Positions 8,151-48,980 of a DNA stretch of 64,000 bases are shown in pieces. Origin of the DNA: a candidate division FCPU426 bacterium (GTDB taxonomy: Bacteria; Oederibacteriota; Muellerivitia; Muellerivitales; Muellerivitaceae); assembly GCA_963847625.1 (NCBI GenBank), contig CAWKAR010000033.1, positions 74,449-138,448 on the forward strand, written 5' to 3'. Below the pieces are notes generated by a model. That model had not been told where the DNA came from, did not search any database, and saw nothing but the letters and a program-made list of their open reading frames with translations. Numbering within the stretch: the stretch's first letter is position 1; each line of letters starts with the position of its first letter. Position numbers and translations under genes: made by a program.

Positions 8151-10271
8151 CTAAGGGGAGGAAACATCCAACTCCCTGATTTCCTGAAGGAGCAAAGGGT
8201 TTCCGGGGGATTGAACAAGCGCTTTTTCGAACATCCGCCGGGCGTCAGACTTTTCACCTTCTGTGGCCAATAACCGGCCATATTTTTCACATAAAACCTC
8301 GTCCCGGTAACTCTTTCCAAAGGATTGTTGAAACAGATTGGAAAAAGTATGTCCATTCACCCAGGCGTCCTCCGGGTGGAAAGTCTTCTCCCAAGAATAA
8401 TTGAAAAGCAATTTCTCGAAAAACAGGGATTGGAGAAATGGATCGGGAGGGAGAGAGGGATAAAATTCTATCAACCTCGTCAAGATTTTCCGCCGGTTTT
8501 GACGGGATGGAATATCGATTATTTGCAAATTGATTTCTTGATTGAAGGCGTAAAAATCTTTCCAAGAGTTGAATAAGGGAACCAATTTGGGATTTAAAGA
8601 AAAAAAGCCCAGCGAATACCGGCTGGAGATTCCAGTTTGTCCAATCGGCAGATTCAACCAACGGCTTTGGGGAAATCGAGCGGAAAGAAAGGGAACGTAT
8701 TGCCTCTCAGTGAACAACGCCGCCCATTGGATCGACACATCTGGAAGTTTCGGATTCAAGGCGGCATTAAAGAAATAACTGCAGTAGGTTAATGAGTATT
8801 CCGGCGGATTAGTGACCATGTCGGAAAAAACGAAACCGGGGCCTTGTTCTTTAGAAGTCAAATTTAAGAAATCAAAGTAAGCCTTTTGCTCATTTTGGGA
8901 ATGCAAGTTGATGATCCCGGAGCGGCTGACATCGATGCAGGAGGAGAGAAGAATGAAGGCAATAAGGACCGGAATTCTTTTCCCGGGGTTTAAACTAAGA
9001 ATAAGGGCTTGGAGGCCAATGACGGTAAAAATAAGAAGTATGGGAAGAACGAGCAATATCCGGTGGAATTCGATATCGCGGGAAAGTATTCCCGGCAGCA
9101 GAAACAAAACAGCGGCCCCGCCTAAGAACCGGGAAACGGGTTCCCTACGGAATTTGTACAGTTCGACCAACCCCACGAAAAAACAGGAACTTAGGATTAC
9201 ATTCAGGAATCCGCCCCCGAAAGGCCGCCAGGTTCCTTCTGCAAGGCCTCCGAAGAAAAGACCCGAACCATAGCTGCCGATGAGGCGAACCTGCTTCATC
9301 CAATCAAAACCATTCATAAGGGAGTTATCCATAAGATAACCGCCATATTTTTCCGTCCGGATGGAATAAAGAAAAGGCAATAAAGAAAGGATGAAAAATA
9401 ATATAAATATAAAAGCGGCTCCGATATTATTTTTAAAGTCTTTCCATAGAATCCAACTCATGGTGACGAAAATCAGAAGAAATAAAACTGGCCAGGGGAA
9501 GAAAGTATAGGGACCTAATCCCAGAAACAAACCCAACCCGCAGGCCCAGTATTTCCGCTTTGAAGGACCGGATTTTAAGAATCGTCCCAAGAAATAAAGG
9601 ACGCCGAATTCCCAAAGCGGAAGCGTGATCCCCGGAAGAAAAACGTTGCTGATGGTGAGCAACCAGTAATGAAAAGCCATCAAGGCAATAAGAATAAAAG
9701 CGATTAAACGGGAAAAGTAAATTCGGGCTGCGTGGTACCCCGCCCAGAGTGTCAATATGGAAATAACCGCAGGCGGGATTTGGGTCCCTAAAAGAGGGGC
9801 GTGGGTTGTTTTTAAGACCAGATAACAAAGATAGCTTAAAGTGCTGGGTATCTGAGAAATATTGACGAATGGAATCCAACGCCAATGATTAAATAAGGCG
9901 ACGGCTTCGAGGGCATTCAAACTCTCATCCCCGCCCGGCCACCAGTCCGAACAGCCCAGTTTGTAGATCCTTAGAACAAGCGATGAGAGGAGAAAGACCA
10001 GCCAAATAGGTTGTAATATGGAAACACCTGTTAATTGGCTCTCTAAAACAAAGGAAGGTTTTTCATTGAGGGGAGGGGTACGGGAAAATTTTAGGAATAA
10101 GAAAAGCGGAACCATAAGACCCAACAGCAGGATGAAAAGCTTCGTGTTCATGGGCCATGAAAAGTATGTTAGAAGAATTTCAGCGATTAATACGACAAAA
10201 AAGAAAACCCATGGATGGTGTGAAAGATTCAAATCCTGAAAAAACGGGGTTTTTAAAGAATGATTTTTCAT
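8151..10271 (-). CDS. GT-C-fold membrane glycosyltransferase (PMT/ArnT-like, GT39/83-type) with C-terminal TPR-like repeats, paralog 1
   Basis: About 12 predicted TM helices. The first-loop motif is WWPGGDES followed by IPSTL, and the C-terminal soluble domain ends in TPR-like helices (ARRMFEKALVQSPGNP). Confidence 0.75.
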   Translation of the reverse strand: MKNHSLKTPFFQDLNLSHHPWVFFFVVLIAEILLTYFSWPMNTKLFILLLGLMVPLFLFLKFSRTPPLNEKPSFVLESQLTGVSILQPIWLVFLLSSLVLRIYKLGCSDWWPGGDESLNALEAVALFNHWRWIPFVNISQIPSTLSYLCYLVLKTTHAPLLGTQIPPAVISILTLWAGYHAARIYFSRLIAFILIALMAFHYWLLTISNVFLPGITLPLWEFGVLYFLGRFLKSGPSKRKYWACGLGLFLGLGPYTFFPWPVLFLLIFVTMSWILWKDFKNNIGAAFIFILFFILSLLPFLYSIRTEKYGGYLMDNSLMNGFDWMKQVRLIGSYGSGLFFGGLAEGTWRPFGGGFLNVILSSCFFVGLVELYKFRREPVSRFLGGAAVLFLLPGILSRDIEFHRILLVLPILLIFTVIGLQALILSLNPGKRIPVLIAFILLSSCIDVSRSGIINLHSQNEQKAYFDFLNLTSKEQGPGFVFSDMVTNPPEYSLTYCSYFFNAALNPKLPDVSIQWAALFTERQYVPFLSARFPQSRWLNLPIGQTGISSRYSLGFFSLNPKLVPLFNSWKDFYAFNQEINLQIIDIPSRQNRRKILTRLIEFYPSLPPDPFLQSLFFEKLLFNYSWEKTFHPEDAWVNGHTFSNLFQQSFGKSYRDEVLCEKYGRLLATEGEKSDARRMFEKALVQSPGNPLLLQEIRELDVSSP

Positions 10272-10278
10272 TATCGCC

Positions 10279-10494
10279 TCAGTGGAAAAGTGGAAAAGCC
10301 AGGCAGCCGATTGTAATCAACCGCCAATCGGCGGCCAGGAAAGGCGCGCCTATTCCAATCAAGGCCACCCATAATTTAAAAACCAAGGATGCCGGAGCGC
10401 AGTTAAGGAAAAGGCCGGAAAGTGTCCAAATAACCACCAAGAAAATAGGTGAAAGCCTATCGCCGGGTGTAAGGATCTTCTTATTCAATTTCAA
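10279..10494 (-). CDS. small two-TM membrane protein (71 aa) immediately upstream of GT-C paralog 1
   Basis: TTG start preceded by GGAGG with a 7-nt spacer. Hydrophobic translation. Its stop lies 7 nt before the GT-C start, which has a GAGG RBS. Confidence 0.4.
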   Translation of the reverse strand: MKLNKKILTPGDRLSPIFLVVIWTLSGLFLNCAPASLVFKLWVALIGIGAPFLAADWRLITIGCLAFPLFH

Positions 10495-10606
10495 GGATTT
10501 ACCTCCAGTGCTTTTAGAACCGGGGTGGCAGGCAATAAACCGGTTTTAGTAGACAATAGGAATTCTTTTTGCCTGCCGCCAAACCGCTATCAAGAAAATT
10601 CTCAAT

Positions 10607-10969
10607 TTACCGGATACCCGTGGCTTTCAACCATTCGTTCAAATGCTTATCGATCCCATTCAACCGTTTCACCCATCGGTCATGCAGTTCTTGTGAAAGA
10701 AGCACCTTTTTCAGGCAGAGAGACATCAAGGGCACGCATTCGTGGGTGAGGGCGACCGCATCCTGGAGGAACTTTTGGGTACGCGCCGCACTTTTGGATT
10801 TCTGGGCATTGGAAACGGCCTGCGAAAGCGCGTGAACTTTGCGTTTCAATCTCTCGACAGCGGCGTTTTTCAAGGCCCAGGGCAAGTGCTGGTAGGTCTT
10901 GTTGAGCTCACTCGCCAGGTCGTCACACAAAGTGGCAAGGTTGATATTCAAAAAGTCGGATTCCGTCAC
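10607..10969 (-). CDS. hypothetical helical cytoplasmic protein (120 aa)
   Basis: ORF with codon usage like its neighbours. No recognisable motif. GTG start. Confidence 0.35.
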   Translation of the reverse strand: MTESDFLNINLATLCDDLASELNKTYQHLPWALKNAAVERLKRKVHALSQAVSNAQKSKSAARTQKFLQDAVALTHECVPLMSLCLKKVLLSQELHDRWVKRLNGIDKHLNEWLKATGIR

Positions 10970-11121
10970 CTAAAGATTATAGCCACTCGATTGCTTTTGG
11001 AATGGTGGAATTATTTTTAAACGTTGGCTACCACGTCATCCTCCCTAAAGCCATGATCAATGGTTCGCTTAGAAACTCAAAATTGATTCTTTTTTTGTGG
11101 GAAAGTTGGCAGGGGCCACCG

Positions 11122-13314
11122 TTATTGGACATGTATTTTTTTGAGTTGATTTTGTTCCAGACGATCCAGCTTTTCTAAAGTTTCCTTAGGCGGACGGAAA
11201 AATGGATCTAATCGTCCCGCTATTTCATAGGACCGCCGAGCTTCGTGGTATTTCCCCGATGCAAAAAAAAGGTTTCCTAAGAAATGGTAGTTTTCGGCAG
11301 AAGGATAACCTTTCTTTAAACCCCATTGAACAGCCGAAAGAATCCTTGATTCGGGTTGTCCGGCCGACATCAAGTTATCGACAACCACTTTCCAAAAATG
11401 GGACTCTAAAAAAAGATCGCTCTTAAAGAGTTTATGATTTTCAAAGAGCCGGTAGTTCATGTCTTCACGGAAATGCAAATTCACTGGATTTAAGCTTTCA
11501 TAAAACAAATCCTGGAGGAATAAATTGGCAATGGACCACCGCTGGAAAGTTTCAGTATTTTGATTTGTGAGGGATGTCACCATCATCCAATAACGATGAG
11601 GAGGAGCGTTTGGGTATAAAGAAGGTCCTAGCTCAAACCATTTTGATTTTGGAAACCTTTGACTTAGAAACAACACGTCAGGTGTTTCAACCAATACAGC
11701 CGCCCAACGTGCCTTTTCAAAGCCCAGGGAGGAATTTCTTTGAGCATCGAAAGGAAAGCAAGCCACCGTCAGGCTTTGCTCCTTCGGATCTTTTCCCAAG
11801 CAGGTTGTGAACTCATTCAAAACTAATCCAGGCTCGCGTGTAACTTGAATCTGCTTCAGTATTTGGTATGCGTCGTAACACTGCCGTTGTTTGGCGTATT
11901 GTTCCCATTTTTCCGGGTGGGATTTCCAAAAATTAGGATAGATCCAAGATAAATGAAAAAAATCTATTCCAAAGGAACAAAGACAGATCATTCCCAGAAA
12001 GTAGACGGTTTTTTCCCCTGGGAGTCTTATTAACAACACTTGAAAACCAAGCGCCACACAGAATAACAAGAGGGGTAATACTGGAAGAATTCGAAATATC
12101 TCAAAATTACTTGTCAAAAAACCGGGCAGAAGAAAAAGAAGGAAAGCACCCATGATCCAACGTACCCATGGATGACGCCGTTGTTGAACAAGTTCAATTA
12201 GTCCTAAAAAAAATAAGGTATCCATCAAAGGATTGAGAAAGCCTCCCCAAAGGGGCCTGTAACCGAACTCATGAATTTCTGGGTCTATTCCCCAAAAAAG
12301 GGCAGTTAAGTAGGAACCGGCGATTTGTAGGTAATGAATCAAGGAAATATTATTTTTAAAGACCCAAAGACTTTCGAGGTAAGTATTTGTTGGAAGATTT
12401 ACGTATTGGATAATCAAAGGAATCAGAAGTAAAAAAATCGGGAGAAATCCGATTAAAAAGAGAAATATCTGTTGGCCCGTTTTTTTAATTGAACGCAGGG
12501 AGCAAAGATAGGCTATGCCGATCATGAACGCGATGAGAGGCCAGTGGAGATTGATATAGAAACCAAGACCCAGGCCAAGACTCAGGCATAAACCCCTTCG
12601 AATTTTTAACTCAAAAGATCGCGCATGCAGGTAATGACCCAGAAGAAGCAGACAAAAACACTCCCAAAAGGGAATTAGAATGGGGGAAATATTAAATCGC
12701 CCAAGATAGAGGGGCCAGAAACAAAATGACCAAAATAACGCCATTAAAGTAGAGAAAGATTTCGAAAAAAAATGTCTGGAAGCCAAGTATCCCATAGTCA
12801 ATGTTCCCATTGAAATTAAAGCGGGAAAAAGCCAAAGCGAAAACAGGGAAGGAGGAATAATTTTGAAAAAAAGAGCTAATAACCAATAAAAACCTGGTGG
12901 CAAATGACTGATGCCGAAGAAAAGATTCCAATGCCATTGGTGATTCAATTGCGTGGCAAAAAAAGCAGAAGCACCTTCGTCGGTTGTGGGCCAGACCGGA
13001 AGGTCGGTAAGTTTGTAAAGCCGTACGGCCAAAGCCAGCCCGATCAGGGTGGTCCAGAACCAAAGGGGCAAGGCCGGTAAGGATTCATATGCCCAAGGAG
13101 GTTTATTCTTTGGCTCGGGAGCATGGCGGACCAGGATGGCGGCGGCCATAATGGGAAGGAAACCCAGCAGGAAAATCCAAAATTGTCCCGACAAAGGGAG
13201 GGGGGCATAAGACAATATGGCACTCAATAATCCAAGAGAAACAAAGTAGATCCATGGATTTTTAGGCAAGGCTTGAGTAAATTGGGCATGGTCGGATGAG
13301 AAATTCCAAGTCAA
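11122..13314 (-). CDS. GT-C-fold membrane glycosyltransferase with C-terminal TPR-like repeats, paralog 2
   Basis: Motif LYKLTDLPVWPTTDEG..LPPGFYWL. Multi-TM N-terminal domain. C-terminal region LGNLFFASGKYHEARRSYEIAGRLDP is TPR-like. Confidence 0.75.
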   Translation of the reverse strand: MTWNFSSDHAQFTQALPKNPWIYFVSLGLLSAILSYAPLPLSGQFWIFLLGFLPIMAAAILVRHAPEPKNKPPWAYESLPALPLWFWTTLIGLALAVRLYKLTDLPVWPTTDEGASAFFATQLNHQWHWNLFFGISHLPPGFYWLLALFFKIIPPSLFSLWLFPALISMGTLTMGYLASRHFFSKSFSTLMALFWSFCFWPLYLGRFNISPILIPFWECFCLLLLGHYLHARSFELKIRRGLCLSLGLGLGFYINLHWPLIAFMIGIAYLCSLRSIKKTGQQIFLFLIGFLPIFLLLIPLIIQYVNLPTNTYLESLWVFKNNISLIHYLQIAGSYLTALFWGIDPEIHEFGYRPLWGGFLNPLMDTLFFLGLIELVQQRRHPWVRWIMGAFLLFLLPGFLTSNFEIFRILPVLPLLLFCVALGFQVLLIRLPGEKTVYFLGMICLCSFGIDFFHLSWIYPNFWKSHPEKWEQYAKQRQCYDAYQILKQIQVTREPGLVLNEFTTCLGKDPKEQSLTVACFPFDAQRNSSLGFEKARWAAVLVETPDVLFLSQRFPKSKWFELGPSLYPNAPPHRYWMMVTSLTNQNTETFQRWSIANLFLQDLFYESLNPVNLHFREDMNYRLFENHKLFKSDLFLESHFWKVVVDNLMSAGQPESRILSAVQWGLKKGYPSAENYHFLGNLFFASGKYHEARRSYEIAGRLDPFFRPPKETLEKLDRLEQNQLKKIHVQ

Positions 13315-13566
13315 TTCATTTTCTCCCCACGGAAGAGGCTTTTCTCCAATAGGAAAATTCCAATCGAAGAAATTTTTTCGGCAAATTTTCCATATTTTTT
13401 AATCTTAACACACCTTTTCAAAGGGTCCAATTTGAATCCCAAACTTTTCATCCAGAAACCCTTTTGTGCCGGAACCAAGTTCCTTTTCCCGTCGTTTTTT
13501 TATCGCCTGACCAGTGTGGAAGATATAATTTAGAATCACTCTTGAAAATTCAGAAAGAAGTTCTCA

Positions 13567-15108
13567 TTGAATCGAGAAGAAAAAACCAAGGTCTTCGAGT
13601 ATATCGCTTTTACCATAATGGCGGTAATCATTTGCCTGGAGCGATGGCACACCTACCTGGAACCGCTCGAGCGGGACATTACGACTTACGCAGTCATTGG
13701 ACACGAACTGCTTTCAGGCAGAAAACTTTATTCGGATCTTTGGGATTGCAAACCTCCCGTCCTTTACTTTTCCTTTTCCATGGCGGAAGTCCTGGCCGGA
13801 TACGGTCCCTCCGAAATCTACCTGCTCAATATCCTAACGGGCCTTTTGACCCTGTGGGGCGTGTACCGGGCGGGCTGCCGGATCGGCGGAAGGGCAGGAG
13901 GCCTGTGGGCTTCCCTTTTTTGGTCGGTTCTTTCAGGTGACCTTTACCTTCAAGCCAACCAGCCGAATATCGAAGTTTTCCTTAACGCATGCCTCACTTG
14001 GGCTTTTGTCTTTTGGCTGGGAGTCGGCGAAAAAAAATTTGATGCGCGAAAGGGGGCGGCCGTCGGGTTTTTACTTGCTTTAGCCTCGCTTTATAAACAT
14101 GTTTTCATTTTCAGTGACATCCTGATGGGCCTGCTTTACCTGGGTTTACAATGGAAAAATCATCTTGCCAGGCGAGCCGCTTATTCCATGGTTCTTTGGA
14201 TTTTTGGGTTTTTATCCGCAACCTGGGTCCTCCTGGTGGGGTACTTCGCCCTGACCCAGCGGATAAAAGACTTCATAGGCGCTATCGTTATCTACAATTT
14301 TTTCAACAATCACTTCGGTGTTGGCCGGGTTTCCATTTTTCTAGAGTTCTTCCAACACAATCAAACCGGTATGGAATTCCCGATTTTTATCCTACCCCTT
14401 TTGTTGTTGAGCTTAGGAGGGATTTTATTCCGCGATGAAAAAAATATTCAACCTTGGCTTTTATGGTTGGTTTTTCTCATTTCCTCTGAAGCCGCCCTTT
14501 TTGCACCTGGTCTCTTCCTTCCCCATTATTACCAACTCCTGCTGCCATGGCTTGTGATCGGAGGAGGTTGGAGTTCGGCCCGATTGGGACAAGTCCTTTC
14601 TGGTCGATGGAAAAAAACTTCCCTTTTACCCGGAATTCTCGTGCTCCTTATCCTGATTTTCCATGAAGCGCCCTTTTACCAGTGGCCGGCGGTGACTTGG
14701 TCGGAAAAAAAATACGGGGACGTTTTTACACAAACGGTCGATTTGGCGAAAAGGGTCGATCAAATCCTAGAACCAGGTGAGACCTTTTATGAATGGGGGA
14801 ACGAAACGGGCCTTTATTTTCTGACAAAAAGGTCCCCTCCTTGTGGGCTTTTTTATGGTTTTCCGCTGATGATTTCCAACTTGACGGATACCTTAAGCCT
14901 CAAAACCATTGAGCAACTGGGAAAAAACAAACCCGAGCTTTTCATTTTTTACACAGGTTATCTGCCAGAAGGCTGGGGGCGGAATCCTCTAATGGTTTGG
15001 CTCCGGGAACATTACCGATTATTGCCTGGTGAAAAAAAAGGGGGGAAATTCCTTTTTCTGATGCGAAAAGGAGGGCGTTTGGAAAAAAGGCTTTCCGATA
15101 AGATCTGA
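13567..15108 (+). CDS. GT-C-like polytopic membrane protein (513 aa, no TPR); paralog of 33343..34929
   Basis: Shares the motif HTY.EP.ERDI...DLW.CKPPV near the N-terminus with the 528-aa protein. It has more than 10 TM segments. Confidence 0.6.
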   Translation: MNREEKTKVFEYIAFTIMAVIICLERWHTYLEPLERDITTYAVIGHELLSGRKLYSDLWDCKPPVLYFSFSMAEVLAGYGPSEIYLLNILTGLLTLWGVYRAGCRIGGRAGGLWASLFWSVLSGDLYLQANQPNIEVFLNACLTWAFVFWLGVGEKKFDARKGAAVGFLLALASLYKHVFIFSDILMGLLYLGLQWKNHLARRAAYSMVLWIFGFLSATWVLLVGYFALTQRIKDFIGAIVIYNFFNNHFGVGRVSIFLEFFQHNQTGMEFPIFILPLLLLSLGGILFRDEKNIQPWLLWLVFLISSEAALFAPGLFLPHYYQLLLPWLVIGGGWSSARLGQVLSGRWKKTSLLPGILVLLILIFHEAPFYQWPAVTWSEKKYGDVFTQTVDLAKRVDQILEPGETFYEWGNETGLYFLTKRSPPCGLFYGFPLMISNLTDTLSLKTIEQLGKNKPELFIFYTGYLPEGWGRNPLMVWLREHYRLLPGEKKGGKFLFLMRKGGRLEKRLSDKI

Positions 15109-15214
15109 GATCACAAGAGTCGCTGTTCCATTTAAAAGTCCCCATGGAATTCAAGCAATTTTCGAAGAAAAGAAGGCCAAGGATTAATCGAAAGGTTGGA
15201 AAGAATCCGGGATT

Positions 15215-21631: not shown

Positions 21632-21867
21632 TTTGGCAATTTTACCTCGAATTTCCCAGATGAAATTTCTCTTTGAATATAATAAAGCATCGGTTGGCCG
21701 CGTAAACTAGGGTTTTTGCTCGTTTTTGGGATCATAAGAGGAGGAAATGAGATAGGGAAGAAAGTAAAAGAAAAAATAATTTCGATTGGCGGAGGAATAG
21801 AAAAATCATAAATCATACCTGGACCCATTTATTGTGTTAGGCCTGGCTGTCTCTTTAGTACTATTAC

Positions 21868-24077: not shown

Positions 24078-24177
24078 AGTCTAATAAAACTTCAAATTTG
24101 CCACAACAGTGCTTCAAACCGCACAGTTTAGAAATTTGAAATGGAAAAGTTTTTAGATTCGAGAAACACACCAGTCA

Positions 24178-26283: not shown

Positions 26284-26419
26284 GGTTCTATTTGCTTTCT
26301 TTGAAAAGTATTTTAATTTTTTCAGCGGGCCTTGTGGCCCGAAGAACAGGCATCTGGGACAAATTGCATCCGTGGTATTTGCCAAAGTTACCTAAGAGTT
26401 TCAGCTTTTTCATTTTCCT

Positions 26420-28576
26420 TTAACTTGCCCCATTCCCCTGTGGTTTATCCTGGAAAATTTTTTCCTGCGGCTGTTTATGGTTATCCCGGAGGATCCGATC
26501 GAGAATTTTAATATTCTCCCAGGCTGAATTGGAATTATACGGGGATAAAACAGCTTTTTGAAAAGCGGACCGGGCCTCAGCGAACCTTCCCATATCAGTC
26601 AAAAGCGACCCTTCTAGGTAATAGAGATGAGGGACTGGAAAACCTTTTTTTATGGCTTGTTGAAAGGCTTGAAGAGCGCCCAAACTGTCCTGAATGGAAA
26701 CACGATGAAAAGCCACTTTCTCCCATAGGCAGGTCATTAGAAAGGGATCCGACTTGACAGTAGGTTCGATTTCCAGGAGCTGACGGATGATTGGTAACTT
26801 CGATTCACCCATAAAAAGATCGAAAGTTTGAGAAGTAATGGGTTGAAGGCGTCTATTGAACTCGTACCAGGAGCGAAGGGTTTGGATGTTGAAGGGATCG
26901 ACAGGTATGACGCCGAGCATTTCATTTTGTTCCAGCCAGTACCAATGGCCAGTTGGAAAGGCTTTTGACAAGAACTGCCTGTAATCAGGATGGACCAGAA
27001 GGGCGGCCCAACGCGCCTCCGAGAAAGGGATCCGATTGTTACGGGCAGCATTGAATGAATATGTGGCAATGGTAAGAGTTTGATCCCCGATTTCAGGGCG
27101 AAATTCCGAAAGTATCATGCCGGGGCCTTTTTCCTTGTTTATTTTTTCCAAAATTCCATAAGCCCTCCAGTATTGGATTAATTTCAAATGATTCCAAGCG
27201 GGCCCAGGCGTTCCCCCAAGGCGGTGATAGGGACCTTCCAAATGGTAAAGGTCCAAAGTGATCGAAGCCAACAACAGCAGGACCATTCCCGCCGACTTCC
27301 AGGAGGAAAACTTGCCCGGCCTGAAAAACAAGTCGAACCATCCCAGGCAGGAGATAAAAACCAGCAACGGAAAAATTTGAGTCATCCGGAATATTTCAAA
27401 CCCTTGGGCGAGAAAACCCGGCAAAGAAAACAGGATCAAGCTAAACAAAATCCATTGGAAAAAACCCTGACGGCGGTACTGGATGCATTTCAAGATGCCC
27501 AGGAAGAAACCTGTGTCCAGGATGGGATTCAGCATGCCGCCCCAAAGGGGACCGAAACAATTAGGCGGGCTGGCCGCCCAAAAAAGGGAGGCCCATTTGA
27601 GGAAGCCTTCCGTAATTGAAGCGGCCCAATCCGAATCTGGAGAAAAAGCCCAAATATGTTTTACGTGTACACCGTTGTTTAATTTCCATGAAAGGAAGAA
27701 AAATATTCCGGTAAAAAAAAACAAGGGTAGAGCCATTGAAAATAATATTTTTATCGTCTGGGGACCTTTTTGTTTTATAGGACCAATCACCGCCGATATA
27801 ACACAAAGAGCCACCACGGGCCAGGCCGCACCGGTGAAAAAACCAATCCCGACCACCATTCCTAAACCAAAAGCGGACAAAAAAAGAGCAGCAGGAGTTG
27901 ACGATCTTAAGAGTTGTATCAAGGTAGTAAAAGCAAGGACTGTCCAAAAAAGTATTATGACATACCATACACAAAATTTAGCGGTGTAAAGAAAAGGAAA
28001 ACTAAAGGAAAAAAGTGCCAAAAGCATAAAAGAAAAATAATCGAAAAAAAACCGTCTATTAAACCAAGCCACGATAACGGTAAAAATTGAAACCAAGCCG
28101 GGAAAGAACCAAAGGGAAAAAAGGGATGGGGGAAAGATTTTAAAGAAAAGCGCCAAAAGCCATTGGGTGAGTGGCGGAACTTGGGCGTAGCTAAAAAAAA
28201 ATTTCCAATCCCATTTTTTAGCTAATTCCATTGCGTAATAACAGTAAAGTCCATCGTCTCCGGTGGGCCAAGTCGATAGGGTCGTCAATTGGGCTAGGCG
28301 TGGCAAACAAGCGAGAATGAGCAAGGACGACCAACACCACCAAGGCAAAACAAATTGGTTGGGTTTTTTCCAGGGAATGGGTTGTTCCGCGGAGCCTAAG
28401 GGTACCCACCCAAAAGCCGCCACTAAGGGTAAGATAATTCCCGCAAGAACGACAACAAGTTTGATGTTTCCGGGAAGAGGAAAATACGATAGAAGCGTGT
28501 TGGTGAGCAGAAAAATAAAAAAATAGATCCAGGAGTTTTGAGGCAGGGAAACATTTTTATGAAAACAAGAGAACAT
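26420..28576 (-). CDS. GT-C-fold membrane glycosyltransferase with C-terminal TPR-like repeats, paralog 7
   Basis: Motif TWPTGDDG..VPPLTQWL and C-terminal PVPHLYYLEGSLLTDMGRFAEARSAFQKAV. I chose the start at the internal ATG 28576 (MFSCFHKNVSLPQNSWIYFF), 10 nt after the hpnE stop. The longer ORF, to 28723, would overlap hpnE by 137 nt with an Arg/Pro-rich extension. Confidence 0.7.
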   Translation of the reverse strand: MFSCFHKNVSLPQNSWIYFFIFLLTNTLLSYFPLPGNIKLVVVLAGIILPLVAAFGWVPLGSAEQPIPWKKPNQFVLPWWCWSSLLILACLPRLAQLTTLSTWPTGDDGLYCYYAMELAKKWDWKFFFSYAQVPPLTQWLLALFFKIFPPSLFSLWFFPGLVSIFTVIVAWFNRRFFFDYFSFMLLALFSFSFPFLYTAKFCVWYVIILFWTVLAFTTLIQLLRSSTPAALFLSAFGLGMVVGIGFFTGAAWPVVALCVISAVIGPIKQKGPQTIKILFSMALPLFFFTGIFFFLSWKLNNGVHVKHIWAFSPDSDWAASITEGFLKWASLFWAASPPNCFGPLWGGMLNPILDTGFFLGILKCIQYRRQGFFQWILFSLILFSLPGFLAQGFEIFRMTQIFPLLVFISCLGWFDLFFRPGKFSSWKSAGMVLLLLASITLDLYHLEGPYHRLGGTPGPAWNHLKLIQYWRAYGILEKINKEKGPGMILSEFRPEIGDQTLTIATYSFNAARNNRIPFSEARWAALLVHPDYRQFLSKAFPTGHWYWLEQNEMLGVIPVDPFNIQTLRSWYEFNRRLQPITSQTFDLFMGESKLPIIRQLLEIEPTVKSDPFLMTCLWEKVAFHRVSIQDSLGALQAFQQAIKKGFPVPHLYYLEGSLLTDMGRFAEARSAFQKAVLSPYNSNSAWENIKILDRILRDNHKQPQEKIFQDKPQGNGAS

Positions 28577-28586
28577 TAGTCCTATT

Positions 28587-29921
28587 TTATGTTTTTTTGC
28601 CAAGGACTTCTTGAGCTTTCTCCGCAGCCTTGTGGCCCGAAAGGCAGGCGCCCTCGATGGTGGCCGGGAGTCCGGTATCGGTAAAGTCGCCGGCCAGGAA
28701 GATATGGGGGAAAGGCGTCTCACAAGGAGGTCTCAGGGAGTCCGTTTCCCGTGACCAGCGGAAGGTCGCCGACATTTCACGAGTGACTTTAGAATGAAGC
28801 ACCTGGGCTTTCCGGGCTAATGGACAACGAACCTTTAATTCTTCCGCCGCCAAGTCCACCAGTTCCTTATCCGTCATTCGGGAGAGTTTTTCGGCGGCGC
28901 TGGCCGTGAAGCTGAGGTACTGGCCCTCCCCCCTCCAATTCCAGTTGGCGTTGCGGTTGAAAACCCACTCGAATTGGGCGCCTGACAGCCCCACCAGGGA
29001 CTCGCAGGTGACTTCCAGGGAGAGGATCAAGTGAACCGACAGGATGGGGGATTTGCCCAGTTTTGGCAGGGTTTCCAAGGCGGGCCAGCTTCCTTTCGGC
29101 CAAACGGCGTGAAGGGAAGCGGGGGAAACGGCCAGGACCAGGGCATCGCCGGAATAAGTTTTTCCAGATCGGCCGGTGAGAGTGAAATCATTTCCATGAA
29201 CTTGAATTGTTTGGATTCTCTCATGAAAATGAACCATCCCCCCTTTTTCTTCAAGGTAAGGAGCCACCTGGGGAAAGGCTAATTCGCTCAAGGGTTTGAT
29301 GGCGAGCCCAAAGGCGCTGTCAAAGCGGGAACCGAAGAAAACATGGTGAAGCACCTCTCCCAGGCCCCTCAGGGGGGCGATATCCGTCCCTATGTTCATC
29401 ACCGCGTTGGAAAGAGGAACCCAGAACCTTTTCCGGGCGGCGGGACCTTGGCCCGAGGCGTCTAAAAATTGGGAGACAGTCTCCAAGCCAGGATTGATCT
29501 TGAAGGGTTTTTTTGAAAAAACCAAGAGAGCCCTGGCCAGGCTTATTTTTTCCCCGAAGGGAAAGGCGTTGGAAGTCAGAAGGCCATAGGCCAAGTGGAA
29601 AGGCGCGGGAAAGCGAGCGCATTGAAGCGATACTTTTCCCCCGGGTGTGAGCCAGGAAAGACGCAGGGGATCGATCCATCGGAAAGAATTTTCCACCCCC
29701 AAGCGTCTTAACAGCGCCAATGTTTCCCGGTAACAACCCATGAAAAGATGCGGGCCATTGTCGCAGGCATAGGGAAAAGCCTTGGTGGGGGCGGTGGAAT
29801 AGACTCGGCCGCCCAAAAACCCGCGGGATTCCAGAAGGTCCACCGAATGGCCCTTTTGCGCCAAGGCAGTGGCGGCCGCCACTCCGGCAAAACCACCCCC
29901 GACCACCAGGACCTTCGGCAT
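28587..29921 (-). CDS. hpnE: hydroxysqualene dehydroxylase (squalene-associated FAD-dependent desaturase, amine-oxidase fold)
   Basis: N-terminal FAD dinucleotide-binding motif VLVVGGGFAGVAAA. It is 444 aa and lies directly downstream of an hpnD-like gene. Confidence 0.75.
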   Translation of the reverse strand: MPKVLVVGGGFAGVAAATALAQKGHSVDLLESRGFLGGRVYSTAPTKAFPYACDNGPHLFMGCYRETLALLRRLGVENSFRWIDPLRLSWLTPGGKVSLQCARFPAPFHLAYGLLTSNAFPFGEKISLARALLVFSKKPFKINPGLETVSQFLDASGQGPAARKRFWVPLSNAVMNIGTDIAPLRGLGEVLHHVFFGSRFDSAFGLAIKPLSELAFPQVAPYLEEKGGMVHFHERIQTIQVHGNDFTLTGRSGKTYSGDALVLAVSPASLHAVWPKGSWPALETLPKLGKSPILSVHLILSLEVTCESLVGLSGAQFEWVFNRNANWNWRGEGQYLSFTASAAEKLSRMTDKELVDLAAEELKVRCPLARKAQVLHSKVTREMSATFRWSRETDSLRPPCETPFPHIFLAGDFTDTGLPATIEGACLSGHKAAEKAQEVLGKKT

Positions 29922-29960
29922 GAAAACCTCCTAAGATCACCCGGCCATTTACCGGATGGA

Positions 29961-30830
29961 TTAAAGCCACTTCAGCAAAAAACACCGGCCCATGGCGCCA
30001 AGAACCGAAAGGCCCTTATCCAATGAAGTCAAGGAAACCCTTCCCTCTAGGATTTTCTGCGGATGAATCCTTAATTGTTGGAAGAGCTTCACGTAAACAG
30101 CGGCAATGGCCTCGGCTGTTTTCAGCTCGCCCCTCTCCCGGGGAGTGAGGACCGCGCGGGCTTTCTCCAAAAAAGACCAGGCCCGGTCCAATTGGAATTC
30201 GATGAAGGAAACCCAATTGGAATCGTTCTCTCCGATCACGGCGGGATTTACATGGAAGCGTTTGAAATCCACTTGGGGGAAATACCGGCGTTTAAGGCCC
30301 GTGTCCTCCAGATAATCCCTCGTGATATTGACCAATTGCAGGAAAACCCCCAGATTTTCCGCGTAGCTGCGGTGGGCGGGGTCCTTGTAACCGAATATTT
30401 CCATGCTGGAAAGGCCTGGACCTCCCGCCACCTTCAAAGCATAGTTGTGGAGTTCCCGGAAGGATTTGAACTGGACGGGCTTCAAATCCATTTCCACCCC
30501 TGAAACAACGCGCCAAAGGGGTTCGGAGGACAGCCTGTGACGGATCACCACTGCCTGAAGCTTTTGGAACAGGGGTTGACCAGCTTTTCCTGCGAGACAA
30601 CCCTTGAGGTCCCGCTTGAAATCCGCCAACTTCTTTCTTTTGATGGGTAACGGGTCGGTTCCATCCGAAATTTCGTCTGCTTCCCAACAAAACCGGTAGA
30701 GGACCTCCATGGCTTCCCTCTTATCCCGGGGAAGAAGGAGCAGGGGCAAATAGAAACTGGTTTTTTTCCGAAGCAAGCCATCCTGGGGATTCACCAATCC
30801 CTCCTCACAGATTCTAAATGACGCGGTCAA
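29961..30830 (-). CDS. hpnD: presqualene diphosphate synthase (squalene/phytoene synthase family)
   Basis: Squalene/phytoene synthase family. It is 289 aa, carries the motif YLPLLLLPRDKREAMEVLYRFCWEADEISD and is adjacent to hpnE. Confidence 0.7.
   Translation of the reverse strand: MTASFRICEEGLVNPQDGLLRKKTSFYLPLLLLPRDKREAMEVLYRFCWEADEISDGTDPLPIKRKKLADFKRDLKGCLAGKAGQPLFQKLQAVVIRHRLSSEPLWRVVSGVEMDLKPVQFKSFRELHNYALKVAGGPGLSSMEIFGYKDPAHRSYAENLGVFLQLVNITRDYLEDTGLKRRYFPQVDFKRFHVNPAVIGENDSNWVSFIEFQLDRAWSFLEKARAVLTPRERGELKTAEAIAAVYVKLFQQLRIHPQKILEGRVSLTSLDKGLSVLGAMGRCFLLKWL
30643..30803. repeat. direct repeat copy 1 (within the hpnD 5' coding end); a near-identical copy lies at 32763..32924
   Basis: A 161-nt segment is repeated 2120 nt away with about 5 mismatches (gggtaacgggtcggttccatccgaaat...caccaatccctcc). 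Confidence 0.85.
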
Positions 30831-30906
30831 AATTAAAGAAAGTAAATTCCTTTTGTTTTAATAAGTTAATTTAAACTTTTTCCAGAAAGTCATTGGACTG
30901 TGTAGT

Positions 30907-32604
30907 TTACCTGTTCAAATGGTATCCGGAGAAAGAAAAACTTCGGTAGGGAGGGATGGCGTTTGGATAATAGGGAAAAGAGTTGATGATGGCCGAATTG
31001 TCCTTCGCTGGCGCAATCGAAGTGCCAGGTATTTCATAATAATAGATGGTTCCTCCCACGTTTCCAGTTGGTCGTAAGCGTCCCACCCAAGGGGATTTTT
31101 TAAAAAAGAGAAAGTCATAATTGAAAGAACCCAGGATAGTGGGGCTCAGAACATAAACTGTTCCCGGCTGGGGCCACGAAAGGTCCCGCTGGGTCCATGG
31201 TTCCCAAGAAAGGCCATAAAAATAAGGGTCCGTCCTCATGCCCGAAATGAACTTCACCTTTTTCCAATCCTTTTGAAGGGCTGTTTCCGCCAGGCGTTTC
31301 ATGTCCTGCCCCAAATTCCAGTCATAGATGTATAAGCAGGAGGTTTTTTGTTCCGTGGTCATGAAGTCGTTGGCGTAGGCAATATGATGAGGAAAATTGC
31401 AAATCGTGGTCAAGGGATGCCAGGCCAGCAAAAGAATCGGAAAAGCCTTAACGATGGCCGAGGAATGGGAACGGAGTGTTTCCCAAAGCCGTTGAAAAAC
31501 CCTGGCCGAGATGAGTATGAGAAAGGGATAAATAGGGAGGGCGTGCCGGATGAGCATGGATTTATCAAGAAAATAAAAAACTGCCAAATAAACAAGGGGT
31601 GGAACCCACAGACAGGGTGGAAGTGAAATTTTCCTCCTTAACACGGCTGCGACTGCCAGGCCAACGAGACAGAAAAATGGAACGGTGTTTTTAAAGAAGA
31701 AATGATAGGGGAAATTGAGGTAGGAACCGTTCGGCCAGAATCTCCCGGCAAAGAAAATTGGATGACTGGAAATGTCCGGTTGAATATCGGCATAAATTTG
31801 CAGGTAATGCAAATAAAAGTGGAGGGGCCAGGGATGGCTGGCCACAAGAATGGTTCCTGGCAGGTACACCAGGGAAACGCTTACGAGAAAACCCAAAAGT
31901 CCGGACAGCCACAGAGGGACCCTTCCGGCCCACTTTTTCCGCCCGCCTTCCGTTTCGCGGCAAAAAAGGATTTCAAGGACCAGAATAGACGGCAGGACCA
32001 ACATGCCGTTGTAACGGGTGGCAGCCGCCAATCCAGCCAGAAGACCCGAAATAAAAAAAGGTAAAATCCGCCCTTTGGGCTGGATCCGGGAAAAATAGAA
32101 CAGGCAAAGGAAAAACCAGAAAACCACAGCGATATCCGTTTTAGCCGTACCGGTAAAGGCCAGAAGATTCGGCTCAAAAGCCCAAAGGACAAGGGCAGCC
32201 GCGCCCTCGACTAATGGGCCGTCACGGACTGTTCGGAAAAGGAGGAAGCCGATCAAAAGCCCCAGCAGCCAATTGATGTTTCGGCTCCAAAAAGTCATGG
32301 CGGTCAGGTGATCGTGATTGTCCATGAAAAGAAACCGTAAGGATCGGTCGACGTATACGGGTGGAAGGGTTGGGTCCAGCTTGAGGTTCATCCCCAGGAG
32401 CGGAAGGGCACAAAGGGCGCCCGGTGCGGTGTTGCCCCAGGGCGTCCAAACGTCACCTGTTTTGAGGTAGTAATAAGATGCCGTGAGTTCCCATTCCTCG
32501 TCCATGACGATGGAATCGCTCCACCAACGGGGAATGATTTGGAGGCTAAAGAAAATGGCGCAAGCGAGAAAACATTTCCAAAGCGTGTTAGATGTTCGGG
32601 TCAT
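30907..32604 (-). CDS. GT-C-fold membrane glycosyltransferase (GT39/ArnT-like, no TPR)
   Basis: Polytopic protein. It has a DEEWE motif in the first extracytoplasmic loop and PLLG..PPVY. I chose the start at ATG 32604 (MTRTSNTLW..). The ORF extends to 32718 through AT-rich sequence that looks intergenic. Confidence 0.65.
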   Translation of the reverse strand: MTRTSNTLWKCFLACAIFFSLQIIPRWWSDSIVMDEEWELTASYYYLKTGDVWTPWGNTAPGALCALPLLGMNLKLDPTLPPVYVDRSLRFLFMDNHDHLTAMTFWSRNINWLLGLLIGFLLFRTVRDGPLVEGAAALVLWAFEPNLLAFTGTAKTDIAVVFWFFLCLFYFSRIQPKGRILPFFISGLLAGLAAATRYNGMLVLPSILVLEILFCRETEGGRKKWAGRVPLWLSGLLGFLVSVSLVYLPGTILVASHPWPLHFYLHYLQIYADIQPDISSHPIFFAGRFWPNGSYLNFPYHFFFKNTVPFFCLVGLAVAAVLRRKISLPPCLWVPPLVYLAVFYFLDKSMLIRHALPIYPFLILISARVFQRLWETLRSHSSAIVKAFPILLLAWHPLTTICNFPHHIAYANDFMTTEQKTSCLYIYDWNLGQDMKRLAETALQKDWKKVKFISGMRTDPYFYGLSWEPWTQRDLSWPQPGTVYVLSPTILGSFNYDFLFFKKSPWVGRLRPTGNVGGTIYYYEIPGTSIAPAKDNSAIINSFPYYPNAIPPYRSFSFSGYHLNR

Positions 32605-32762
32605 ATTTGGATTATATTTGAACGGCAACCGACAGGTATCCTCAACTTGTCTTTTTTTAAAAAAAGTAAAGGGTGTATATTCCGGTTTTTTCGATTCATT
32701 ACCTCTTATATCCACCATGCATCTGGCTCTTGGATGGGTATATATCGATTCACCCTGGGCCT

Positions 32763-32924
32763 ATGGGTAACGGGTCGGTTCCATCCGAAATCTCGTCTGC
32801 TTCCCAACAAAACCGGTAGAGGACCTCCATGGCTTCCTTCTTATCCCGGGGAAGAAAGAGCAGGGGCAAATAGAAACTGGTTTTTTCCGAAGCGAGCCAT
32901 CCTGGGGATTCACCAATCCCTCCC
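32763..32924. repeat. direct repeat copy 2: an orphan fragment of the hpnD 5' end (about 53 codons), not part of an intact gene
   Basis: See copy 1. On the minus strand it encodes ..KTSFYLPLLFLPRDKKEAMEVLYRFCWEADEISDGTDPLP and then diverges. Confidence 0.85.
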
Positions 32925-33342
32925 AAACACTCTTAAATTGGTGATTTAAATTAAAAAAAGATAGCTGAATTCAATCAGTAAGTGCAGCAAGTAGGCGAAA
33001 GACCTGCTCAAGCATTCTGAAACCAAAGCTTTTACAAGGACGGTTATTAAGAATTCATTCCATACGGTGTGCTTTCGCCAGAATTATGGTAGCAAAATAG
33101 GTCTTTTTGGGATAGAAGCGTCAAACCAAATCAGAGGTATTTTCGATAATGCCTTATTCCTAACTTTGGAAAAACACACATAAAAGGAATGGATGCCAAA
33201 TGCAATAATAACTTGTAGATGTTCAAAATTTTGGAGCTGTTATAAAGTGAAATAAGTAGGTGTGGACCTTTTACCAGTGACTAACACAAATTCTCCACGT
33301 TCTTTAATATTCAACGGTCCTGAACTTGATTGAATTACTCAA

Positions 33343-34929
33343 TCAATAGAGCCCAAGTTGCGGGTTGTTTTGGATCCGTTTTTCCAACTCTCCGCCTTTC
33401 CGCACCATAACGAGAAAATGACCGTCCTCTGGATAAGTCTGCCAAACTCTGTATTCTTTCTCAAACCAAGAAGCATTTTCTGGATAGCGTTTTTGATCGA
33501 TAACAACCGCCTCAGGTTTTTTATTCTTCAGATCTGCTTTCAATCGATTTGAAAGTTGGCCAACCATCGGACCTTCCTTTAAAAACCAAGCACAATATGC
33601 GCCGGTTGGAGGATCCCGTCGACTGGCAAAATAAATTCCTAATTCGTTTCCGAAATGGTAAAAAGTTTCTTCTGGAAGCAAAACCTTATCCAGCGCCGTC
33701 CCGAGCCGTTGCGCATCCACAAAGGTCGCTTCGTAACGCTTCGTCGACCATTGATCCGCTGAAAGGAAATAAAAGGGAATTTCATGATAAAGAATCAAAA
33801 GTAACGCGATGGAGGGTAAGAAAAAGGCCCTAGACGTTGAAATCCTCCAAAGCAACGCGGCTGACCATCCCCCGGCCACCATCAAGACAGGAAGGCCTAA
33901 TTGAAAATAATGTGGAAACCAATGACCTGATGCATTGGTTTCAATAAAAACGGCGATACCGTAAGCCACTAAGACTTTCCAATAGGAATAATTCATTTTG
34001 TAAAAGCGGCCTGCTAAGAGGGTGGTCAAAATTAAAAGAGGCCAAAGAATCCACCGGATATCACGGTAAAACATAAGTCCAGGGATCAAACCCTTGGCAA
34101 GATGATGCCAAATACTCCCCGCCAAATAGGAATCGTATGTCACCAATGCATCCCAACAATCTTGAAAACGATTATGGATCGCGAAATAAATGAAAGTGAG
34201 TGCCCAAAATAAAAAAGAAGGAAGAACAAAAAGAATCAGTCTTGGAATATCCAGTTTCCATTTTCGATTTTTCCAAACCGCCAAACCCGACCCCAGGGCC
34301 AATAAAATCGGGAAAATCAGCATGGGATGCTTGTAACAAGCCGACAGGCCCCCAAGAAGACCGATACAACCGCAGCGGACCAACGACATGGGTTTATGAC
34401 CCCAAACCGCCAAGGCGAAAGCGGAAGCCTGCAAGGCAATAACAAACACCTCGGTATTAGGTTCATTGGCCTCCAACATGAGGTCCGTGCACGAGGCGGC
34501 CCAAAACACCGCCGCCCAAAGGCCTCCGACCTCCCCCATGACACGACCCGCGGAATAAACAGCCACTAAGGTAACGCTCGCTGCCAAAAGCCAAAGCAAA
34601 TAAAATTCAAAAGGCCCGTATCCGGCGATTTTTTCTCCCAAAGCATAGGTAATAAAAATGGCTGGCGGTGTGTTAACCCAAAGGTCCGTGAAAAGAAGCC
34701 GCCCCTTCAGCATTTCATGAGCTGTAACCGCATAAATGTGGATATCGCGTTCCATAGGTTCCCGATAGGTGTGAAACCGGGCTGCTGCCATCACCGCCCA
34801 GAGCGCAAACAGGAAAAAAATTGAATAAATCGAAACTTTCCGGGGAGGGCCAGGGTTTTTGGGGGTTTGCGGTCCGATTTCTTCGATGGGGTAACCAGAA
34901 AAGTCTGCAACTCTATGTAACACTTTCAC
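33343..34929 (-). CDS. GT-C-like polytopic membrane protein (528 aa), paralog of 13567..15108
   Basis: Shares RFHTYREPMERDI..DLWVNTPPAIF with the 513-aa protein. More than 10 TM helices. Confidence 0.6.
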   Translation of the reverse strand: MKVLHRVADFSGYPIEEIGPQTPKNPGPPRKVSIYSIFFLFALWAVMAAARFHTYREPMERDIHIYAVTAHEMLKGRLLFTDLWVNTPPAIFITYALGEKIAGYGPFEFYLLWLLAASVTLVAVYSAGRVMGEVGGLWAAVFWAASCTDLMLEANEPNTEVFVIALQASAFALAVWGHKPMSLVRCGCIGLLGGLSACYKHPMLIFPILLALGSGLAVWKNRKWKLDIPRLILFVLPSFLFWALTFIYFAIHNRFQDCWDALVTYDSYLAGSIWHHLAKGLIPGLMFYRDIRWILWPLLILTTLLAGRFYKMNYSYWKVLVAYGIAVFIETNASGHWFPHYFQLGLPVLMVAGGWSAALLWRISTSRAFFLPSIALLLILYHEIPFYFLSADQWSTKRYEATFVDAQRLGTALDKVLLPEETFYHFGNELGIYFASRRDPPTGAYCAWFLKEGPMVGQLSNRLKADLKNKKPEAVVIDQKRYPENASWFEKEYRVWQTYPEDGHFLVMVRKGGELEKRIQNNPQLGLY

Positions 34930-45221: not shown

Positions 45222-45239
45222 TTCCTGACGGGCAATCGA

Positions 45240-48805: not shown

Positions 48806-48980
48806 ACTTGCCTCCGGATCCAATTTAAAATTCACTAGGGAGAATCGGCGCATATCCTCCCCTGACAAAAACCCCAAAAACGTCCCTGTAGCTTATCCCA
48901 ATCACCTTCAGGGGGCAACTTATAAGGAAAGATTCCAAGGTTGAATATGCTGAGATGATAAAAAAATACTTGGATTAAAG

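Follow-up and report, generated by a model that had tools for sequence, protein, structure and literature searches.

Why one stretch of bacterial DNA should hold eleven genes for membrane glycosyltransferases of the GT-C type is the question raised by the window analysed here, 64,000 nucleotides (nt) from a candidate division FCPU426 bacterium (assembly GCA_963847625.1, contig CAWKAR010000033.1). To our knowledge, no other class of glycosyltransferase acts beyond the cytoplasmic membrane, and a bacterium that does not belong to Actinobacteria usually has just one or a few GT-C enzymes. Ten GT-C genes were found among the 14 genes at positions 8151-34929, namely seven genes of one family, here called family A (W1-W7), and three shorter ones (S1, S2 and S3), and an eleventh lies at 50800-52992. 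The open reading frames (ORFs) are thus where the original prediction, made from the sequence alone, had placed them, and they were assigned to GT-C by the Pfam profile PMT_2, by homology or by fold. The reading that we favour, at somewhat better than even probability, is glycosylation outside the cytoplasmic membrane that depends on a lipid carrier, is carried out by non-redundant paralogs and yields a variable surface product.

The seven family-A genes all lie on the minus strand and encode proteins of 698-767 amino acids (aa) that can be aligned end to end, with pairwise identities of 23-40%. W1 (8151-10271, 706 aa) is the last gene of the array and is convergent with addA. It is followed, in the order of the coordinates, by W2 (11122-13314, 730 aa), W3 (15215-17377, 720 aa), W4 (17364-19547, 727 aa), W5 (19535-21631, 698 aa), W6 (24178-26385, an ORF of 735 aa) and W7 (26420-28723). 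The start of W3 overlaps the stop of W4 by 14 nt, and the start of W4 overlaps the stop of W5 by 13 nt. The W6 ORF has an N-terminal extension that is absent from the other paralogs, and its true start is likely the Met at 26283, while W7 probably starts at 28576 (718 aa). The motifs of the first loop in this set are WPGGDES, WPTTDEG, YPLLDEI, WPLYDEG (twice), WPLIDEG and WPTGDDG. A shared W-P-x-x-D-E-G motif had been proposed, and a motif is indeed present in all seven paralogs, but it takes the looser form [WY]-P-x-x-D-[ED]-x, in which Pro and Asp are invariant. The Asp, which is Asp105 in W5, is kept in 98% of 60 family members. Conservation of at least 85% was observed at about 100 further positions of the family-A alignment, and the conserved residues R91, R173, R199, R395 and K459 (W5 numbering) are candidate phosphate ligands.

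An AlphaFold2 model of W5 was built on the alignment of the 60 family members and reached a pLDDT of 92.4 and a pTM of 0.91. In a Foldseek comparison of this model with the PDB, ArnT was the top match (E 5.6e-9, 588 columns), followed by ALG9, Pmt4, STT3/PglB/AglB, AftA and Emb, in line with the ArnT- or PMT-like fold that had been expected. W1-W4, W6 and W7 are counted as having the same GT-C_A fold because of their full-length homology to W5. When the model was read against hydropathy and charge, W5 was N-in, with two extra N-terminal transmembrane (TM) helices and a core of 11 TM helices. The [WY]PxxD[ED] motif stands directly after the TM helix 77-92 in a first outer loop of 57 residues, and a second conserved outer loop of about 52 residues spans 297-348. 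The C-terminal parts of W5 comprise an alpha/beta domain (480-600) and tetratricopeptide repeats (TPRs, about 600-698). The TPR part makes up the last 75-115 residues or so, about two to three repeats, and is separated from the TM core by the alpha/beta domain; positions 629-705 of the family profile match consensus TPR proteins.

The helices of the model were then applied across the 60 members in a computational analysis of the positive-inside rule. The density of Lys plus Arg was 0.22 in predicted cytoplasmic loops, against 0.064 and 0.051 in predicted outer loops, the motif loop among them, and therefore the motif loop and the C-terminal domain are assigned to the non-cytoplasmic side, which agrees with the extracytoplasmic placement suggested earlier. 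As the model shows, a family-A protein begins with two additional TM helices, continues with the 11-TM core of GT-C type and ends with the periplasmic alpha/beta domain and some three TPR hairpins. The motif Asp of the outward first loop is predicted to be the catalytic-type residue. Among the paralogs of the window, TM1 and loop 1 are the most conserved (41%) and the periplasmic alpha/beta and TPR parts the least (29-31%). The paralogs are accordingly read as probably non-redundant, differing most in the periplasmic alpha/beta and TPR (or PA14) parts.

Profile searches place these proteins at the edge of known families. Relative to the Pfam gathering cut-off of PMT_2 (PF13231), 26.1 bits, scores above it were obtained for W2 (26.5 bits), W5 (33.6), S1 (30.3) and S2 (35.7), and scores below it for W1 (17.2), W3 (16.9), W4 (23.0), W7 (19.7) and the gene at 50800-52992 (25.2); no PMT_2 match was observed for W6 or S3. 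One or two weak TPR matches were found at the family-A C-termini, such as TPR_2 in W2 and TPR_16 in W6. The profile searches suggested with the original prediction were thus borne out for PMT_2 in four genes and, weakly, for TPR, but PF02366 (PMT) and MIR matched none of the paralogs, and neither did DUF1736 (PF08409) at E <= 0.01. In a sequence-profile search of the PDB with full-length family A, TPR matches dominated and no GT-C chain was found in the top 60.

ArnT, the undecaprenyl-phosphate-L-Ara4N:lipid A transferase (GT83; PDB 5f15/5ezm), is the closest known enzyme in structure. Like family A, it combines a GT-C_A core, whose first periplasmic loop bears an acidic residue, with an alpha/beta domain that follows the last TM helix in the periplasm, and it is partnered by an ArnC-like GT2. 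It differs in having 13 TM helices and being encoded by a single gene, whereas family A has the 11-TM core with two extra N-terminal helices, a TPR or PA14 cap, 7-11 paralogs and no arn operon. These likenesses raise the possibility of an ArnT-like modification of lipid A or the lipopolysaccharide core with several sugars, leading to resistance to cationic peptides. The alpha/beta domain behind the TM core in both proteins is consistent with it, as is a GT2 protein of the window that resembles ArnC. However, no match to ArnT or any other NCBIfam equivalog model was observed for the nine GT-Cs scanned (W1, W2, W3, W5, W7, the three short ones and the gene at 50800-52992), none of the genes arnA/B/D/E/F is present in the window, and the Arn pathway has no counterpart to 7-11 paralogs with TPR or PA14 caps. 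Such a modification is therefore highly unlikely, and the earlier view that the locus is not the known ArnT pathway is upheld.

PMT1-7/POMT and TMTC1-4 (GT39 and GT-C/PMT clan), the protein O-mannosyltransferases of eukaryotes, are the closest systems in logic. Both are multi-paralog families whose members have different substrates. PMT, POMT and TMTC share with family A a loop-1 motif of the D-E type, and the C-terminal TPRs of TMTC also face away from the cytosol. The TMTC core, moreover, consists of 11 TM helices (PMC7801869). A resemblance to TMTC had been pointed out for the array, and it holds for the 11-TM GT-C core followed by TPRs in smaller number. Membership of the TMTC family fails, since TMTC proteins carry DUF1736 and 8-10 TPRs, whereas family A has no DUF1736 match, about three TPRs, an additional alpha/beta domain and two extra N-terminal TM helices. 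PMT and POMT are further distinguished by PF02366 and by MIR in loop 5, both of which family A lacks; its large outer loop at 297-348 has only about 52 residues. PMT and TMTC use dolichyl phosphate, while undecaprenyl phosphate is the expected donor lipid for family A, which is bacterial.

The combination of GT-C and TPR is not new for bacteria, because TfpW of Pseudomonas aeruginosa already has such an architecture. TfpW, a pilin D-arabinofuranosyl GT-C, is about 650 aa long and is predicted to have 11 TM helices; it carries an acidic motif in periplasmic loop 1 and a periplasmic C-terminal TPR domain, and it was modelled on ArnT (bioRxiv 10.1101/2020.04.19.049825). By description, which is the level at which the two were compared, TfpW is a single gene beside pilA with D-Araf (DprE1/2) genes, whereas family A forms a paralog array inside hpnCDE. 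Among its annotated ORFs, the window has neither a pilin gene nor a DprE-like one.

Family A extends far beyond this window. A word-indexed search gave 69 strong full-length relatives, all from metagenomes or metagenome-assembled genomes (MAGs), whose names were limited to "hypothetical protein", "ArnT-like glycosyltransferase" and "glycosyltransferase family 39 protein [bacterium]". In an exhaustive profile search, 682 cluster representatives were matched at E <= 1e-30, more than 150 of them full-length at E < 1e-177, so that the family comprises hundreds of clusters at 50% identity. According to the project identifiers, the related contigs derive from metagenomes of peat, bog, fen and soil. 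What is new here is a large, wholly unannotated family with an architecture of 2+11 TM helices, an alpha/beta domain and TPR or PA14, together with the 5-11 paralogs kept per genome and the hypervariable island that they form inside the hpnCDE operon.

An array of this kind might instead be an assembly artefact of a repeated gene, or consist of decaying pseudo-enzymes. Most PMT_2 scores are below threshold, the GC content at third codon positions (GC3) of the array is low, and one family-A gene of a related locus is split by an IS21 element, all of which would fit such an explanation. However, the ten GT-C ORFs of the interval are all intact and full length, the paralogs share no more than 23-40% identity and are not joined by long near-identical repeats, and the one near-identical DNA repeat is a 165-nt fragment of hpnD. 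The same arrays were found in many independent assemblies, some on contigs as long as 2 Mb. Conservation at the level given above extends over the catalytic Asp and about 100 other positions, and the 682 cluster representatives do not suggest a decaying gene. A non-functional array is thereby effectively refuted, and the artefact that the original prediction had named as a risk is excluded.

The eleventh GT-C gene (50800-52992, minus strand, 730 aa, first-loop motif HTDQG) encodes a PA14 domain (33.7 bits, cut-off 24). Its protein was aligned with columns 86-592 of the family-A profile at an hhalign probability of 98.9% (E 3.8e-17). On this profile comparison it ranks as a true but distant member of family A, in which the TPR cap has been exchanged for the carbohydrate-binding PA14 domain. 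TPR or PA14 C-termini had been claimed for the array as a whole; TPRs are confined to the seven proteins W1-W7, and PA14 takes their place in the one product of 50800-52992.

The short GT-Cs are S1 (13567-15108, plus strand, 513 aa), S2 (30907-32718, minus strand, 603 aa) and S3 (33343-34929, minus strand, 528 aa). At the place equivalent to the motif, E-R-D is found in S1 and S3, M-D-E-E in S2 and T-D-Q in the PA14 gene. No Pfam or PDB sequence match was observed for S3, which is counted as a GT-C because of its evident paralogy to S1 (phmmer 5.5e-85). Membership of S1, S2 and S3 in family A was ruled out, as hhalign against the family-A profile gave no significant match, and the three appear to represent two shorter and separate kinds of GT-C. 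Relatives of the S1/S3 type were limited to six matches, including Thioploca ingrica THII_0725 (35%) and an Elusimicrobia MAG protein (34%), and this kind of GT-C thus seems to be rare and patchily distributed.

The paralogs are old, because orthogroups are common to several MAGs: W1 groups with a gene of the related locus L005 (L005_6; 40% identity, the closest relative, in the same position next to AddA), W6 with L003_2 and L007_1 (40-43%) and W7 with L005_1 (40%, its closest relative). Yet in comparisons with related loci, identities of 48-80% were observed for AddA, 51-70% for HpnC/D/E, about 72% for the MBOAT protein and 53-71% for the four-helix-bundle protein, against 26-52% for the best family-A match. 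Divergence or turnover is therefore much more rapid in the family-A genes than in the genes around them. In the closest relative, L008 (IspH 90%, AddA 80%), an incomplete locus with one family-A gene in it, this AddA-proximal gene (795-2954) is 27% identical to W1 and 40% to W3, and the low identity at the W1 position indicates replacement rather than simple descent.

Composition sets the array apart as well. The family-A genes have a GC3 of 0.42-0.58 and S1-S3 one of 0.47-0.55, whereas values of 0.63-0.78 were obtained for housekeeping and flanking genes, apart from hpnC with its lower 0.58, and 0.71 for the PA14 GT-C gene. Membrane-protein composition was considered as a cause of the low GC content of the array and was rejected, since GC3 is low too and both the PA14 GT-C and the MBOAT genes have normal GC3.

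Traces of recombination are present at two places in the window. Direct repeats of about 165 nt that are 98% identical, both corresponding to the 5' end of hpnD (30643-30804 and 32763-32923), bracket S2, which looks like the result of a recent recombinational insertion of S2 between hpnC and hpnD. The second copy lies within a duplicated hpnD 5' fragment of 58 codons (32750-32926, minus strand), whose translation matches the N-terminus of SQS_PSY. The first 300 nt or so of W4 and W5 (19219-19518 and 21312-21611) are 79% identical in DNA, and the first 112 aa of the two proteins are 69% identical against 34-41% for the remainder, a pattern suggestive of gene conversion limited to the catalytic loop and the TM hairpin at the N-terminus. 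In L007, an IS21-type element with an rve transposase and IstB (13705-18408) was found between a 368-aa PMT_2 fragment and a 309-aa ORF, and it apparently splits a family-A gene. Arrays also differ in size, with 2 to 7 genes each. Taken together, the island is hypervariable and low in GC3 and evolves in the manner of an O-antigen or surface-glycan locus.

The array is also interleaved with genes for squalene synthesis. The minus-strand order is hpnC, S3, the hpnD 5' fragment, S2, an hpnD-like gene, hpnE, W7 and W6. The first gene of the operon, hpnC (35082-35954, minus strand), encodes the squalene synthase HpnC (TIGR03464, 278.8 bits, cut-off 250.45), and hpnE (28587-29921, minus strand) encodes the hydroxysqualene dehydroxylase (TIGR03467, 358.8 bits, cut-off 283.05), so that both pass their NCBIfam equivalog cut-offs. 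The third gene (29961-30830, minus strand; SQS_PSY 2.8e-49), for an HpnD-like presqualene diphosphate synthase, has HpnD as its best match but stays below the cut-off (180.7 of 278.6 bits). The ATG of W7 lies 10 nt past the hpnE stop, behind AGGA, and, with the relatives included, hpnE and the next GT-C gene either overlap or are 10 nt apart. Together with the overlaps among W3, W4 and W5, these are signs of an array that is embedded in, and would be co-transcribed with, hpnC, hpnD and hpnE. A scan of the array for promoters and terminators gave counts that were not above those of shuffled sequence and is uninformative on operon boundaries.

The same arrangement recurs elsewhere, and the array is syntenic throughout an uncultured lineage from soil and peat. 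An alignment of the W5 orthogroup was searched against metagenome contigs, which gave 34 non-redundant loci of at least 12 kb; a single-protein scan of genome contigs gave 2 loci. At least two family-A genes are present in 20 of the 34 loci and at least three in 15, and the metagenome contig L015 also has seven. The recurrent order is MBOAT and LB_356-like genes, then hpnC, hpnD and hpnE, two to seven family-A genes, a four-helix-bundle gene of about 120 aa, the last family-A gene, in some cases a cation-efflux gene, and addA and addB. This order was observed in MAG contigs of 0.27-2.05 Mb and in 12 of the 34 loci, so that the combination of hpn and family-A genes is represented by at least 12 independent contigs. 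Dispersed copies occur too, as in GCA_003152075.1, which has five family-A genes in the hpn array and three elsewhere (at least eight).

It is tempting to conclude from this adjacency that the GT-Cs act on, or need, a squalene- or hopanoid-derived lipid, either a triterpenoid alcohol or a triterpenoid-anchored glycan. Besides the 12 loci with hpnC-hpnD-hpnE followed by family-A genes and the tight spacing behind hpnE, the insertion of GT-C genes among the hpn genes at differing places (S2 and S3 in the window, the first family-A gene of L005 between hpnD and hpnE) would agree with such a link, and GT-Cs with lipid acceptors, such as ArnT and PimE, do exist. However, about two-thirds of the family-A loci are without hpn genes, the unrelated addAB and cation-efflux genes are equally syntenic, and the window contains no squalene-hopene cyclase and no hpnH/G/I/J/K gene. 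Squalene itself has no hydroxyl group for glycosylation, and a literature search on squalene/hopanoid genes and GT39/PMT_2 glycosyltransferases found no link between the two. A triterpenoid substrate is for these reasons quite improbable. We regard as unlikely, too, the broader idea that the GT-C island makes the main variable surface layer, an O-antigen substitute built outside the membrane and tied to a squalene/hopanoid lipid as its anchor or through a triterpenoid-rich membrane.

A source of lipid-linked sugar is more readily found. The gene at 41436-43391 (plus strand) encodes an SDR epimerase/dehydratase (Epimerase 7.6e-39) fused to a PgfS/ArnC-like GT2 (Glycos_transf_2 7.3e-24) and is the candidate donor synthase. 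Its GT2 part matches PgfS at 1e-55 (189 bits against a cut-off of 500) and ArnC at 4.9e-41, both below the equivalog cut-offs, the C-terminal region being as expected. Directly upstream, a split transketolase is encoded by an N-terminal part (39749-40534) and a C-terminal part (40462-41436, both plus strand), and its stop overlaps the start of the SDR-GT2 gene at 41436. This coupling suggests an unusual sugar donor, possibly a branched or chain-extended one.

In the mechanism that we propose, the cytoplasmic PgfS/ArnC-like GT2, fused to a domain that would modify sugar nucleotides, loads a sugar onto undecaprenyl phosphate, and the lipid-linked sugar is presumably flipped across the membrane. 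Each GT-C paralog would then move a single sugar to its own acceptor or linkage at the outer face of the cytoplasmic membrane, and the paralogs would jointly assemble or decorate a surface glycoconjugate of variable structure, sugar by sugar. Of the usual three components (GT2, flippase and GT-C), the window thus has eleven copies of the GT-C and the PgfS/ArnC-like GT2. A precedent for the donor side is found in streptococci, where PgfS and the epimerase PgfE make a lipid-linked sugar and GT-Cs glycosylate extracytoplasmic disordered regions rich in Ser and Thr (PMC12041528, PMC5856776). The window resembles this Pgf/GtrB/PgtC2 system in having a PgfS-like GT2 fused to an SDR and a giant secreted protein rich in Thr and Pro. 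The Pgf GT-Cs belong to the YfhO family, however, while those of the window are PMT_2/ArnT-like and would, judging from the genes, act in glycosylation.

The secreted protein is a GH9 enzyme (57566-62803, plus strand) with CelD_N and Glyco_hydro_9 domains, a repeat region of about 1000 residues and a C-terminal FlgD_ig domain. The repeat region is rich in Thr, Pro, Ser and Asn, with up to 77% T+S+P per 100 aa, and shows tandem DNA periods of 48, 168 and 300 nt; the extreme GC and AT skew at 60-62 kb is due to it. GH9 is, speculatively, a mucin-like candidate for O-glycosylation. Proteins with Ser/Thr-rich regions of this kind are tentatively, and slightly, favoured as acceptors because TMTC and TfpW set a precedent for TPRs, the fold is Pmt-like, the donor module resembles Pgf and GH9 has its mucin-like region. 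An envelope polysaccharide or glycolipid is an acceptor class that can be advanced just as tentatively, because of the many non-redundant GT-Cs, the PA14 variant and the polymer-modifying neighbours, and the remainder of the split falls to other classes.

With the same enzymology but an acceptor other than protein, the paralogs could form an assembly line, as PimE, Mpt, Emb and Aft do, whose product is an envelope glycan anchored to a lipid or a polymer; each GT-C would contribute one defined linkage to a lipoglycan or wall polysaccharide as it grows. Mycobacterium has many non-redundant GT-C paralogs per genome. Family A resembles the mycobacterial EmbA/B/C, AftA-D, MptA-C and PimE sets in the number of non-redundant GT-Cs, in tandem genes (embCAB) and in the stepwise extracytoplasmic assembly from polyprenyl-phosphate sugars that it would carry out; it differs in having TPRs where those have carbohydrate-binding modules, in the lack of a family-level sequence match and in lineage and genomic context. 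An assembly line would account for eleven GT-Cs in the window and at least eight in GCA_003152075.1, and for tandem, translationally coupled genes like embCAB. The PA14 variant points to glycan binding, and DltB-like MBOAT, DltD/LB_356-like, sulfotransferase, GT2 and acyltransferase_3 genes lie nearby. However, GT-Cs that act on proteins (TMTC, TfpW) are the better-known bearers of TPR caps, the top fold matches include two protein O-mannosyltransferases, Pmt4 and Pmt2, and no gene for the synthesis of a primer or anchor was identified in the window. An envelope-glycan assembly line is consequently possible but, on balance, doubtful.

Several observations weigh against glycosylation of lipid-carrier type by the array, as favoured here. 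Five of the seven family-A paralogs fail the PMT_2 gathering score, and the NCBIfam scan of the nine GT-Cs gave no family match at E <= 0.01. The SDR-GT2 gene is some 6 kb away from the locus on its hpnC side and has a sub-equivalog match, and no GtrA-like flippase was found in the window. No Thr/Pro-rich ORF besides GH9 was seen in the window or the related loci examined, and since GH9 lies about 22 kb from the array, its link to the GT-Cs is circumstantial. The favoured mechanism also assigns no role to squalene synthesis; given that addAB and the cation-efflux gene are just as syntenic, the adjacency of the hpn genes could reflect inherited gene order and not functional coupling.

The 5-11 deeply diverged copies that the lineage keeps in an island of fast turnover imply an elaborate, probably variable and so far unseen extracytoplasmic glycan. 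If the coupling to the hpn genes is functional, triterpenoid lipids would be connected to surface glycosylation, and a surface layer tied to triterpenoids, if true, would amount to an envelope glycoconjugate of a class new to bacteria and would give HpnCDE a novel role. In practical terms, the paralogs can also be regarded as a natural library in which one catalytic core is combined with different TPR or PA14 modules for acceptor recognition. The lineage is common in peat, bog and forest-soil metagenomes and has large secreted cellulase-like proteins, so its surface chemistry bears on carbon turnover and on interactions with phages and predators. The locus is a good lead for the envelope glycobiology of uncultured soil bacteria, and the enzymology itself is of an expected kind.

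The other genes of the interval 8151-34929 besides hpnE and the hpnD-like gene are a four-helix-bundle gene and a fused TM/spermidine-synthase-like gene. The former (10607-10969, minus strand, 120 aa) is 23S_rRNA_IVP-like (PF05635, E 3.7e-4, below the cut-off), and a homolog immediately precedes the last family-A gene in almost every syntenic locus (L003 14648-15016; L005 16708-17061; L007 13346-13708; L008 399-761; L010 14262-14615; L012 12122-12475).

Divergently from hpnC, an LB_356/DltD-like protein (360 aa) and a DltB-like MBOAT protein (TIGR04091, 187.8 bits, below the cut-off) are encoded at 36221-38625 (plus strand). The pair is kept in five related contigs, with a 40-63-aa ORF added between the two genes in the relatives, and looks like a module for the O-acylation of an extracytoplasmic polymer. 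Between this module and the operon of transketolase and SDR-GT2, a tRNA-Val (CAC) is located at 39385-39461 (plus strand); it was the only match in an Rfam scan of the window, which gave no riboswitch or leader. On the other side, genes for a DUF4915/TIGR03032 protein, a 228-aa GT2, a sulfotransferase and an NHL-repeat protein (43468-46178 and 46787-48877, both minus strand) adjoin the donor module. Sulfated glycans may be made at the locus, and other GT2 genes and an acyltransferase_3 gene are further polymer-modifying genes of the window. An NHL protein is also encoded beside the MBOAT gene in L010.

The spermidine-synthase-like gene (22290-24077, plus strand, 595 aa) is not a GT-C. It encodes a polytopic TM protein fused to a spermidine-synthase-like part (Spermine_synth 5.2e-14) and exceeds the 40-bit cut-off of NF037959 (fused MFS/SpdSyn) with 59.6 bits; no Pfam match was observed for its N-terminal half. 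A homolog of this protein adjoins three family-A genes in an unrelated metagenome contig (L059).

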